A DNA stretch of 64,000 nucleotides from Escherichia coli (GCF_050920415.1 NZ_CP169309.1), one strand, 5' to 3'. Positions 10,641-40,647 are shown, numbered from the stretch's first letter. Translations and numbers: made by a program. Notes: generated by a model not told the origin, from the sequence alone.

Positions 10641-10924
10641 TGGCTAACCTGCAACTTGCCGTTAAATGTGAATACTTCGATGCCATGATTCGTGGAGAGA
10701 AAACGGAAGAGTATCGCTTGTGTAATGACTACTGGAATAAGCGAATTATGTTCCGCGAGTACGACCGCCTGATTATCACAAAGGGATATCCGAAGCGCGA
10801 CGACTCCAGTCGTAGAATTGACGTCCCGTATGACGGATATGAAATCAAGACAATCATACATCCACACTTCGGTGATAAACCGGTAAAGGTGTTCGCGATA
10901 AAGGTGAATATCGGCAATGAATAA
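10640..10924 (+). CDS. Hypothetical prophage protein (94 aa from ATG 10640)
   Basis: GGAGGTGAGG RBS before ATG 10640; TAATG coupling with the upstream gene. Confidence 0.4.
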   Translation: MANLQLAVKCEYFDAMIRGEKTEEYRLCNDYWNKRIMFREYDRLIITKGYPKRDDSSRRIDVPYDGYEIKTIIHPHFGDKPVKVFAIKVNIGNE

Positions 10925-10995
10925 CATCCTCGCACTCGCGGGGATTTCTTTTATCTGAACTCGCTACGGCGGGTTTTGTTTTATGGAGATGATAA

Positions 10996-11163
10996 ATGCA
11001 CTTCCGAGTCACAGGTGAATGGAATGGAGAGCCATTCAACAGAGTTATCGAAGCAGAGAACATCAACGACTGCTATGACCACTGGATGCTGTGGGCGCAG
11101 ATAGCACATGCAGACGTAACCAATATTCGAATTGAAGAACTGAAAGAACACCAAGCCGCCTGA
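10996..11163 (+). CDS. Small protein upstream of xis (55 aa)
   Basis: GGAG RBS; stop codon lies in the loop of terminator 11156-11176. Confidence 0.4.
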   Translation: MHFRVTGEWNGEPFNRVIEAENINDCYDHWMLWAQIAHADVTNIRIEELKEHQAA

Positions 11164-37792: not shown

Positions 37793-37947
37793 AGATAGTC
37801 GAATGGTGGGGAAAAGTCACTCGAAATACGTATGAGATGACGAATGCCACACTTTGCGTCTTATTCCTCCGACGTAGAGTCGTTTACGCAGCAAGCGCGG
37901 AGTATGTCATCAGGGTCAAGAATTGAAATTGAGAGATGCCTGAATAG

Positions 37948-37974
37948 CAAAAAAGCGCCTTTAGGGCGCTTTTT
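37948..37974 (-). terminator. Second (duplicated) copy of the lysT-operon terminator hairpin
   Basis: AAAAAAGCGCC-TTTAG-GGCGCTTTTTT, near-identical to 38105-38132. Confidence 0.6.
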
Positions 37975-38104
37975 TACATTGGTGGGTCGTGCAGGATGAC
38001 TCACTTCGCTCGCCCTTCGGGCCGTCGCCGCGAGCGGCTCCGTTGTTTCGCTGCGCTCAACTCGAACCTGCTGCAGGTTCGAATCTTTGAATATCCCAGA
38101 TAGC

Positions 38105-38132
38105 AAAAAAGCGCCTTTAGGGCGCTTTTTTT
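38105..38132 (-). terminator. Intrinsic (bidirectional) terminator after lysQ
   Basis: GCGCC-TTTAG-GGCGC hairpin flanked by A- and T-runs immediately 3-prime of the last tRNA. Confidence 0.8.
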
Positions 38133-38136
38133 ACAT

Positions 38137-38212
38137 TGGTGGGTCGTGCAGGATTCGAACCTGCGACCAATTGATTAAAAGTCAACTGCTCTACCAACTG
38201 AGCTAACGACCC
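38137..38212 (-). tRNA. lysQ: tRNA-Lys (UUU)
   Basis: Reverse complement matches E. coli tRNA-Lys incl. anticodon loop CUUUUAA and CCA end. Confidence 0.95.
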
Positions 38213-38344
38213 CTTGCGGGATTATGCTGCTTTAATCATTCAGGATGGTGGGTCGTGCAGGATGACTCGACTTCGTCTCGCCCTTCGGGCCGTTGCTGAC
38301 GCAACGTTATCCTTCACATTCTCTACCAGTAACCACCTTTAAAT

Positions 38345-38420
38345 TGGTGGGTCGTGCAGGATTCGAACCTGCGACCAATTGATTAAAAGTCAACTGCTCT
38401 ACCAACTGAGCTAACGACCC
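38345..38420 (-). tRNA. lysZ: tRNA-Lys (UUU)
   Basis: Identical to the other tRNA-Lys copies. Confidence 0.95.
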
Positions 38421-38566
38421 ATACGGGTGTTACCTGAATGATTTCTACTCGGGACCAATCTTTAATATTGGTGGATCGTGCAGGATGACTCGCTTCGCTC
38501 GCCCTACGGGCCGTTGCTGGCGCAACGTTATCCTTCACGCTTAACATCTGAGTTTGATGTTAAAAC

Positions 38567-38642
38567 TGGTGGGTCGTGCAGGATTCGAACCTGCGACCAA
38601 TTGATTAAAAGTCAACTGCTCTACCAACTGAGCTAACGACCC
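38567..38642 (-). tRNA. lysY: tRNA-Lys (UUU)
   Basis: Identical to the other tRNA-Lys copies. Confidence 0.95.
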
Positions 38643-38645
38643 GAG

Positions 38646-38721
38646 TGGTGGGTGATGACGGGATCGAACCGCCGACCCCCTCCTTGTAAGGGAGGTGCTC
38701 TCCCAGCTGAGCTAATCACCC
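38646..38721 (-). tRNA. valZ: tRNA-Val (UAC)
   Basis: Reverse complement matches E. coli tRNA-Val (anticodon loop CUUACAA). Confidence 0.95.
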
Positions 38722-38771
38722 GATACTGCGCTGGATACTACAAACTACTTCCACCGAACCCACCGCATTAG

Positions 38772-38847
38772 TGGTGGGTCGTGCAGGATTCGAACCTGCG
38801 ACCAATTGATTAAAAGTCAACTGCTCTACCAACTGAGCTAACGACCC
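38772..38847 (-). tRNA. lysW: tRNA-Lys (UUU)
   Basis: Identical to the other tRNA-Lys copies. Confidence 0.95.
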
Positions 38848-38849
38848 GG

Positions 38850-38925
38850 TGGTGGGTGATGACGGGATCGAACCGCCGACCCCCTCCTTGTAAGGGAGGT
38901 GCTCTCCCAGCTGAGCTAATCACCC
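38850..38925 (-). tRNA. valT: tRNA-Val (UAC)
   Basis: Identical to the other tRNA-Val copy. Confidence 0.95.
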
Positions 38926-39060
38926 GATACTACGCTGGATACTACAACTAACTAGGTTAGTGGTGGGTCGTGCAGGATGACTCGACTTCGTCTCGCCCTT
39001 CGGGCCGTTGCTGACGCAACGTTATCCTTCACGTTTTACTACCGCTTCCACCTTAGCGAT

Positions 39061-39136
39061 TGGTGGGTCGTGCAGGATTCGAACCTGCGACCAATTGATT
39101 AAAAGTCAACTGCTCTACCAACTGAGCTAACGACCC
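39061..39136 (-). tRNA. lysT: tRNA-Lys (UUU)
   Basis: Identical to the other tRNA-Lys copies; first gene of the operon. Confidence 0.95.
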
Positions 39137-39300: not shown

Positions 39301-40092
39301 TTACATCGCGTTCAGACGTTTTTGCGCCTGTTTTGCGCCATCAGTACCAGGGTATTTACTGATAACCTGCTGGTATACGGCTTTCGCTTTTGCGGTGTCA
39401 CCTTTCTCCTGCATGATGACGCCGACTTTAAACATCGCATCTGCAGCCTTCGGTGACTTCGGATAGTTTTTCACTACCGAAGCAAAATAATACGCCGCAT
39501 CATCTTTTTTACCCTTGTTGTAGTTTAACTGACCCAGCCAATAATTGGCGTTTGGCAGGTAAGTTGAATCAGGGTAATTTTTGATGAAATTCTGAAATGC
39601 CACCATTGCGTCATCCTGGCGGGATTTATCCTGCACCAGCGCAATAGCTGCATTGTAATCCGTGTTTGCATCACCGCTTTTCACCGGCGCGCCAGCATTC
39701 GCAGTACCAGCATCAGCTGTCGGCGTCGTTGATGCCGCCGCACCGCTTTGATCGCCGCTGGTTGATTGCGCCGCTGCACCACCGCTGCTGAGGCTATCGA
39801 TCTGCAACAGGATCTGCTTTTGCCGCTCCACGACCTGATTCAGTTGATACTGATTTTCCTGAATCTGACCACGCAGGGAATCAATATCGGATTGATTATC
39901 AGAGAGTTGTTGCTGGAGTTGGGTTAAAAGCTGGCTGTGAGCATTAGAAATACGCTCAAGTTGAGTGACGCGGTCTTCGACCGAGCCTGAGCCGACACTA
40001 CTGATTGGTGCCTGAGCAAAAGCGGCCCAGGGGGCCGCTATACCAACCAGTAACGACAGACTCAATAGTTGATGTCTGAAGTTACTGCTCAT
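39301..40092 (-). CDS. cpoB: Cell division coordinator CpoB/YbgF (263 aa)
   Basis: Signal peptide, coiled-coil and TPR region; last gene of the tol-pal cluster. Confidence 0.9.
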   Translation of the reverse strand: MSSNFRHQLLSLSLLVGIAAPWAAFAQAPISSVGSGSVEDRVTQLERISNAHSQLLTQLQQQLSDNQSDIDSLRGQIQENQYQLNQVVERQKQILLQIDSLSSGGAAAQSTSGDQSGAAASTTPTADAGTANAGAPVKSGDANTDYNAAIALVQDKSRQDDAMVAFQNFIKNYPDSTYLPNANYWLGQLNYNKGKKDDAAYYFASVVKNYPKSPKAADAMFKVGVIMQEKGDTAKAKAVYQQVISKYPGTDGAKQAQKRLNAM

Positions 40093-40101
40093 GCAATTCT
40101 C

Positions 40102-40647
<546 letters not shown>

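Follow-up and report, generated by a model that had tools for sequence, protein, structure and literature searches.

The closest described relatives of the sequences reported here are the RtT-type units, which were reportedly first described as 178-bp repeats distal to tyrT and are catalogued as Rfam family RF00391. In Escherichia coli K-12, one unit lies between tyrT and tyrV and three 178-bp units follow tyrV, each ending with the 3' end of tRNA-Tyr, and the 3' end of the annotated rttR RNA (b4425) falls exactly at the CCA of this tRNA-end copy, hereafter called the mimic. A complete RtT 5' half comprises a closing strand, GAUGAGAA, an inverted plus a direct T-arm half, and GAGCG-AAG-CGAG. 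RtT RNAs have been detected by Northern blot in A. pleuropneumoniae, and published work describes the role of RtT as unknown or links it loosely to the stringent response, a link for which later papers cite Bosl and Kersten (1991).

Other described systems share part of this organization. REP/BIME-like repeats are also small, hairpin-rich tandem units that vary between strains, but the RtT units of E. coli are tied to stable-RNA genes and possess an end derived from the host gene. Attachment (att) sites in tRNA genes have a geometry that extends from the T loop to the CCA. Finally, 3'ETS-leuZ is a functional spacer/trailer of a tRNA transcript; as a matter of general knowledge, it resembles RtT units in being a transcribed, non-tRNA part of a tRNA precursor that is released by processing, and RtT units differ from it in being repeated, terminated by a tRNA end and polymorphic in copy number. 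Our literature search found no paper on repeats in the lysT operon.

We analysed a window of 64,000 nucleotides of E. coli DNA, the lysT region of which is 100% identical to that of E. coli strain MFDS1022581. The lysT operon, which has nadA and cpoB as neighbours, contains seven tRNA genes, all on the minus strand (ARAGORN). Read in the direction of transcription, the locus is composed of the following features:

39061..39136, minus strand: lysT, tRNA-Lys(UUU), the first gene of the operon (ARAGORN; Rfam tRNA model, 79.2 bits).
38961..39060, minus strand: unit 1, a 5'-truncated internal RtT-like unit of subtype A and 100 nt between lysT and valT (Rfam RtT, 60.6 bits).
38961-38978, minus strand: 18-nt copy of the tRNA-Lys 3' end in unit 1.
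38850..38925, minus strand: valT, tRNA-Val(UAC) (ARAGORN).
38772..38847, minus strand: lysW, tRNA-Lys(UUU) (ARAGORN).
38722..38771, minus strand: lysW-valZ spacer of 50 nt, without a unit (by comparison with K-12).
38646..38721, minus strand: valZ, tRNA-Val(UAC) (ARAGORN).
38567..38642, minus strand: lysY, tRNA-Lys(UUU) (ARAGORN).
38469..38566, minus strand: unit 2, an internal RtT-like unit of subtype B and 98 nt between lysY and lysZ (Rfam RtT, 54.2 bits).
38469-38486, minus strand: mimic of unit 2, with one C>T change.
38345..38420, minus strand: lysZ, tRNA-Lys(UUU) (ARAGORN).
38246..38344, minus strand: unit 3, an internal RtT-like unit of subtype A and 99 nt between lysZ and lysQ (Rfam RtT, 60.6 bits).
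38246-38263, minus strand: mimic of unit 3.
38137..38212, minus strand: lysQ, tRNA-Lys(UUU), the last gene of the operon (ARAGORN).
38100..38136, minus strand: first Rho-independent terminator, a GCGCC-CUAAA-GGCGC hairpin between A and U runs (sequence; repeat; PMC4176162).
37980..38099, minus strand: full-length terminal RtT unit (Rfam RtT, 49.9 bits; PGAP 'RtT sRNA' in MFDS1022581).
37980-37997, minus strand: 18-nt copy of the tRNA-Lys 3' end in the terminal unit.
37944..37979, minus strand: second terminator copy (100% identity), closing a 156-157 bp tandem repeat of terminator, RtT unit and tRNA end.

Rfam models also detected a CpoB/ybgF ICR thermometer (RF02782, 142 bits) at 40063-40201 on the minus strand, between pal and cpoB and upstream of the operon. 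At 3749-3865 of the window, again on the minus strand, lies an ALIL pseudoknot (RF01497, 122 bits), a frameshift element of IS3-family insertion sequences, which points to a copy of such an insertion sequence near the start of the window.

Four blocks of the operon share the same sequence at one end. The 23-mer GAGTCATCCTGCACGACCCACCA, read on the minus strand, occurs four times, at 37980-38002, 38246-38268, 38469-38491 (with one mismatch) and 38961-38983, for 0.00 matches expected in the 64 kb from dinucleotide shuffles. Its last 18 nt are the 3' end of tRNA-Lys including the CCA, so that the mimic itself, ATCCTGCACGACCCACCA, is present in four copies, one of them with one mismatch. A GC-rich 19-nt core, GCRACGRCCCGWAGGGYGA, is likewise found in exactly four copies in 64 kb against 0.01 expected, and includes the GCCCTTCGGGCC hairpin noticed in a previous, sequence-only reading of this DNA. 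In transcript orientation, each of the lysT-valT, lysY-lysZ and lysZ-lysQ spacers consists of a short variable segment, the conserved GC-rich core and then GAGUCAUCCUGCACGACCCACCA, the last 18 nt of which are the tRNA-Lys 3' end. These internal units fall into two paralogous subtypes, A and B. Downstream of lysQ, the terminator is followed by a longer fourth block ending in the 18-nt tRNA-Lys copy and then by the terminator again; the two terminator copies (37944-37975 and 38100-38131) are 100% identical over 32 nt, and the repeat extends through the 18-nt tRNA end, with a tandem period of 156-157 bp. The lysT operon terminator has been described, and is identical to that of lysV (PMC4176162). 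The duplicated terminator escaped a simple terminator scan, probably owing to A/T runs that lengthen its stem.

These data show that the repeated-block observation is real and was correctly seen: the sequence-only reading had reported four blocks carrying the last 18 nt of tRNA-Lys with its CCA, a conserved GC-rich hairpin in each, and a doubling of the lysQ terminator around one of them, and all three are found at the locus. The coordinates that it gave for the blocks hold apart from small offsets, and in the second block the mimic starts at 38246 and not at 38231. It had placed the mimic at the beginning of each block, which is wrong: with the whole operon read from the minus strand, each block closes with its mimic. 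The blocks are truly related to tRNA sequence, sharing with it only the T-arm and the acceptor 3' strand, and each tRNA 3' end forms with the following mimic an 18-bp direct repeat, spaced by about 100 or 156 bp.

All four blocks score above the RtT gathering threshold of 45 bits in a covariance-model search (60.6, 60.6, 54.2 and 49.9 bits, cmscan), and PGAP calls the terminal block 'RtT sRNA' at the identical position in strain MFDS1022581. Each of them follows a tRNA gene of the same orientation and sits either inside the tRNA operon or at its end. The full order of such a unit, from 5' to 3', is an inverted T-arm half, a direct T-arm 5' half (GCAGGUUCGA in Lys units, AAGGUUCGA in Tyr units), a core of about 70 nt and the tRNA end, which copies the final 16-19 nt of the preceding tRNA (end of the T loop, 3' strand of the T stem, 3' strand of the acceptor stem, and NCCA). 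The core is made of three short hairpins, AACGUUGC-loop-GCAACG, CCC-GAA-GGG and one of variable sequence. The terminal block matches the whole model, although its outer helix is poor, with marked mismatches; its 5' half contains the T-arm palindrome, an inverted-plus-direct T-arm half that reads UCGAACCUGC A GCAGGUUCGA, and the GAGCGCAGCGA element, with a degenerate outer helix. The three internal units lack the RtT 5' half and retain only a short closing strand, GUGAAGGAU. In these, the alignment spans a 43-nt insertion and places the model's 5' half on the T-arm of the real upstream tRNA, indicating that the internal units are 5'-truncated fragments; their Rfam scores are therefore earned in part from the upstream tRNA T-arm and not from the unit itself.

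Compared with the tyrT RtT, the lys units share the core, the 3' end of the upstream tRNA including the CCA, the position in tRNA operon spacers and the presence of tandem units after the last tRNA. They differ in several respects: their 3' end and closing strand are of the tRNA-Lys and not the tRNA-Tyr type, the three internal units lack the model 5' half, the tail repeat incorporates a Rho-independent terminator and recurs every 156 bp, against 178 bp at tyrT, a tpr-like ORF is missing, and a stable RNA is documented for the tyrT RtT and none for the lys units. Taken together, the four blocks are very probably modules of the RtT family, which we regard as the best explanation overall. The blocks are thus real but ordinary, belonging to a family already catalogued, with the terminal one already annotated; the sequence-only reading had described them without recognising this membership. 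A tRNA pseudogene origin was rejected, as ARAGORN and the Rfam tRNA model find just the seven genuine genes at the locus, with no cloverleaf remnants in the blocks.

A plus-strand ATG at the junction between tRNA end and core (GGATGACTC) raises the idea that the blocks encode small antisense proteins. Indeed, in two copies this ATG opens ORFs of 35 and 41 amino acids. However, the frames differ between copies (MTRLRLALRAV... and MTHFARPSGRR...), because the copies have a 2-nt indel right after the ATG, one copy's frame stops after about 19 codons, and the ORFs continue into antisense tRNA sequence. In addition, cross-taxon variation obeys hairpin pairing and not codons, which makes this coding hypothesis vanishingly unlikely. 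In the sense direction, the lys units have no ATG-initiated equivalent of the tpr ORF found in the tyr units. Both antisense and sense ORFs in the lys units were consequently rejected, the former for the frame differences between copies and the latter for the missing tpr ATG.

The RtT modules of the lysT operon vary among E. coli strains. Alleles were compared in seven genomes, with spacers given from lysT-valT to lysZ-lysQ:

This window: spacers of 135/50/146/132 nt; tail with one RtT unit and two terminators.
K-12: spacers of 135/149/146/132 nt; tail with one RtT unit and two terminators.
Nissle 1917: spacers of 35/51/48/33 nt; zero units and a single terminator.
R32_14_1F: spacers of 135/50/146/132 nt; three internal and two tail units, three terminators.
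O157:H7: one unit; only four Lys genes; lysT-valT unit absent.
T28R: three internal units, tail unit absent.
DETEC-E223: four internal units, tail unit absent.

The comparison with K-12, which the sequence-only reading had proposed, reveals the same architecture plus a fifth unit: the lysW-valZ spacer of K-12 contains an extra 99 nt lying exactly between the lysW CCA and the mimic CCA, and its 149 nt equal this unit plus the sequence found here, save for a 1-nt indel (CTAATGACGG in K-12 versus CTAATGCGG here). Units 1, 2 and 3 (lysT-valT, lysY-lysZ and lysZ-lysQ) are all absent from Nissle 1917. Across the seven genomes, and barring occasional strain SNPs, the empty site equals the filled site minus the spacer, core and mimic, so that each unit is cleanly present or absent, with the 18-nt direct repeat as its boundary. 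The 156-157 bp tandem unit of the tail is present in zero, one or two extra copies, giving one, two or three terminators depending on the strain, and the strains examined contain from none to six units. On a larger scale, the tail is empty in 2,910 of 5,425 complete E. coli genomes (~54%), and the lysT-valT unit is absent from approximately 10 of 30 evenly sampled genomes, a count made from BLAST pieces and their span, the >=80% coverage summary being unusable since pieces were joined across the unit. Because each unit is absent from some healthy E. coli lineages, with Nissle 1917 carrying none at all, the units in the lysT operon are clearly dispensable in E. coli.

Units are found at the orthologous spacers in Citrobacter, Enterobacter, Pluralibacter and Phytobacter, as revealed by the wider comparison among Enterobacteriaceae that had also been suggested. 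Since these orthologous internal units exist, the empty sites of E. coli are most likely losses. Such losses might occur by slippage or illegitimate recombination between the 18-bp direct repeats, and gains or tandem duplications by unequal exchange or gene conversion between identical tRNA genes; the end-points, from which these routes are deduced, would also implicate the identical terminators in unequal exchange. The mimic of the lysY-lysZ unit (38469-38486) is changed at one acceptor-strand position, C>T here and C>G in T28R, while the real tRNA genes are invariant, indicating relaxed constraint on the copy. In practical terms, the units account for length polymorphism, assembly and alignment breaks, and recombination-prone sites in tRNA operons.

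Two origins had been put forward for the pseudo-3' ends, past duplication and past integration. Duplication is supported by the zero to two extra copies of the tail tandem unit and by the two paralogous internal subtypes. Integration would make the blocks the scars of elements that target the tRNA 3' end or T loop, leaving a displaced tRNA end (attR) after decay. The geometry is suggestive: as in tRNA-gene att sites, the duplicated segment starts in the T loop, runs to the CCA and forms a direct repeat flanking a strain-variable segment, and the filled and empty alleles resemble precise insertion and excision. One prophage-flanked locus (L012) has an RtT mimic cut at ATCC|. Nevertheless, no integrase, cargo or foreign gene is present at the lysT locus between nadA and cpoB, and the inserts measure only about 80-140 bp, with 81-138 bp lying between the repeats, and consist of a conserved, structured, host-wide core, rather than element-specific DNA. 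This core recurs at many tRNA loci and is also fused to the 3' end of 5S rRNA, which to our knowledge is not a usual integration target. Moreover, it forms tandem arrays with a fixed period (156, 173-178 bp), which argues for local duplication.

Phage collections yielded only host-flank matches. A blastn search of the tail unit against 50,697 phage records returned three weak matches, of which at least one is a Salmonella chromosomal contig filed there by mistake and annotated 'RtT RNA', and the core pattern matched nine loci in IMG/VR, five of which are host-type RtT units, lying beside tRNA genes where the locus includes those, and four chance GC-rich matches in coding DNA. Phage or plasmid relatives of the RtT blocks were thus not found in the collections searched. 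We conclude that integration is not supported at this locus and is a very improbable origin for the blocks.

At L012 (~10900-11100 of an IMG/VR prophage contig, valU-lysV tail), the RtT mimic after lysV ends right after ATCC, and the DNA beyond is unrelated, encoding a Pin/Gin-like invertase and tail-fibre-like proteins; the locus may represent a rearrangement or integration point inside the mimic. A terminator-RtT tail identical to that of the lysT operon also follows lysV in the valU operon.

The RtT core extends well beyond the lysT operon. A core-pattern scan of one genome per species identified at least 120 loci, mostly in Enterobacterales with a few in other Gammaproteobacteria (Orbaceae, Marinobacterium, Amphritea), chance matches in GC-rich genomes aside. 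Among the matches listed, 82 have a stable-RNA gene within 700 nt upstream, and 71 of these 82 contain 12 nt or more from the 3' end of that very RNA. The copied RNAs, again among the matches listed, are tRNA-Lys, tRNA-Tyr, tRNA-Arg(ACG), including the E. coli serV-arg operon, tRNA-Arg(CCG), tRNA-Pro and 5S rRNA, for which the copied segment is AACUGCCAGGCAU. Lineage-specific tRNA variants are mirrored in the mimic. The RtT model scores Pro and Arg(CCG) units at 89-101 bits, showing that the family already spans several tRNA types; by contrast, the 5S-type, internal Arg(ACG)-type and dispersed-type units are not recognised by the Rfam RtT model at its gathering score.

The 5S-type unit consists of an RtT-like core followed by a copy of the 5S rRNA 3' end (AACTGCCAGGCAT), with which the 5' strand GGCAGTT pairs. 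Found shortly after the 5S rRNA genes of rrn operons, it lacks an annotation, falls below the RtT gathering threshold and is polymorphic in E. coli, being found in 3,285 of 5,426 genomes at one to four places per genome. Such units occur at L025 (1-260), L078, L080, L081, L098, L106, L125, L128 and L132, as well as elsewhere in the genome of the present strain. Where tRNA-Arg(ACG) genes stand in tandem (E. coli serV-argV/Y/Z/Q, L124; L028, L031, L115, L119 and L137), the spacers between them contain RtT-like units that are truncated on the 5' side and close with the 3' end of tRNA-Arg. These Arg units correspond exactly to the internal lys units, score under the Rfam gathering threshold and are unannotated. 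Lastly, a dispersed intergenic repeat with an RtT core (AACGTTGC-loop-GCRACGGCCCGAAGGGTGA-hairpin-TCAT, then an A-run and a small hairpin) was observed away from tRNA genes in Alcanivorax sp. 24 (L043-L057), Pectobacterium (L094/L095), Brenneria (L113) and Pseudomonas (L058/L072), often in tandem with a period of ~74 bp. It matches zero Rfam families at gathering and may be a free-standing relative of the RtT core.

Sequence variation across these loci bears on RNA structure. When 46 sequences are aligned, pairing in the three core hairpins reaches 91%, compared with 23-45% in slid-partner controls, and the variable hairpin (F) displays changes on both sides in four of its five pairs. A 5' strand complementary to the mimic is found at a fixed position, with a sequence that depends on the RNA type: GGGGAAGGAU for tRNA-Tyr, AGAGGAU for tRNA-Pro, GGGAGGAU for tRNA-Arg(ACG), GCRGGGU for tRNA-Lys (GUGAAGGAU in internal units) and GGCAGUU for 5S rRNA. 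This closing segment pairs with the T-stem part of the tRNA-end copy. The internal units are predicted to fold into a closed three-hairpin shape, more stable than shuffled sequences (z = -2.54, -3.12 and -2.59 for units 1, 2 and 3), while the terminal unit does not fold significantly better than its shuffles (z = -1.46). The covarying hairpins, together with a closing helix that matches the mimic, indicate that pairing is or was under selection, acting on the RNA or possibly on DNA hairpins, and suggest that a purely neutral-repeat view does not explain these two features.

Published work describes the expression of the lysT operon in K-12. It is transcribed as one ~1100-nt precursor ending at the first terminator, from which RNase P takes off the terminator before freeing the pre-tRNAs, proceeding 3' to 5'; on Northern blots, probes for the spacers revealed no species in wild-type K-12, and precursors only in rnpA49 mutants (PMC4176162). 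The internal units sit inside this polycistronic transcript, and are therefore transcribed and discarded during RNase P and exonuclease processing; the blank spacer probes in the wild type likewise suggest that the units behave as discarded spacers. The tail unit, located beyond the terminator, is reached only by read-through. By analogy with the tyrT RtT/rttR RNA, the mimic could provide the released spacer RNA with a tRNA-like, exonuclease-resistant CCA 3' end, but this analogy with a stable RNA may fail for the lys units, because spacer RNA is lacking in the wild-type K-12 Northern blots.

A stronger proposal holds that selection maintains the modules as functional RNAs that act through their 3'-end mimic. 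They might then be decoys or competitors that occupy enzymes reading tRNA 3' ends (RNase P, RNase T/PH, the CCA-adding enzyme, RelA on the ribosome), or a natural external-guide-like strand for RNase P. The core is kept mainly across Enterobacterales and a few other Gammaproteobacteria with compensatory changes, the closing helix covaries with the RNA type (Tyr, Pro, Lys, Arg, 5S), the mimic tracks lineage-specific tRNA variants, and the annotated tyrT RtT RNA terminates at the mimic CCA, all in agreement with such a function, as are the Northern-blot detection of RtT RNAs in A. pleuropneumoniae and the stringent-response link. By contrast, every unit of the lysT operon is missing from some healthy E. 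coli lineage, and Nissle 1917 has zero; the tail unit lies past the terminator where the ~1100-nt transcript ends, and no spacer RNA species is seen in the wild type (PMC4176162). Furthermore, uncompensated mutations build up in mimics and stems within E. coli, and the mimic is mostly base-paired, and not exposed, in the predicted folds. The processing-decoy role raised in the sequence-only reading is weakened by the healthy Nissle 1917, which has none of the units, and by the blank wild-type K-12 Northern blots. On balance, we consider a function exerted through the mimic unlikely for these modules.

Beyond the lysT operon, RtT-type modules could represent a general device in which a covarying core is fused to the 3' strand of the preceding stable RNA, mimicking its 3' end, with a 5' strand that coevolves to pair with the mimic, a proposal that we hold to be doubtful at present. 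If true, it would imply a selected function that relies on how mature 3' ends are recognised, such as the buffering or guidance of RNase P, 3' exonucleases or RelA. Alternatively, it would imply that some unrecognised process transfers a copy of the neighbouring RNA gene's 3' end to a dispersed repeat element. In conclusion, for this window the blocks matter little, being members of a catalogued family, one of them annotated, and dispensable. The comparative pattern, namely a mimic that matches the upstream RNA, including 5S rRNA, a covarying helix and a variable copy number, provides testable handles on the role of RtT.
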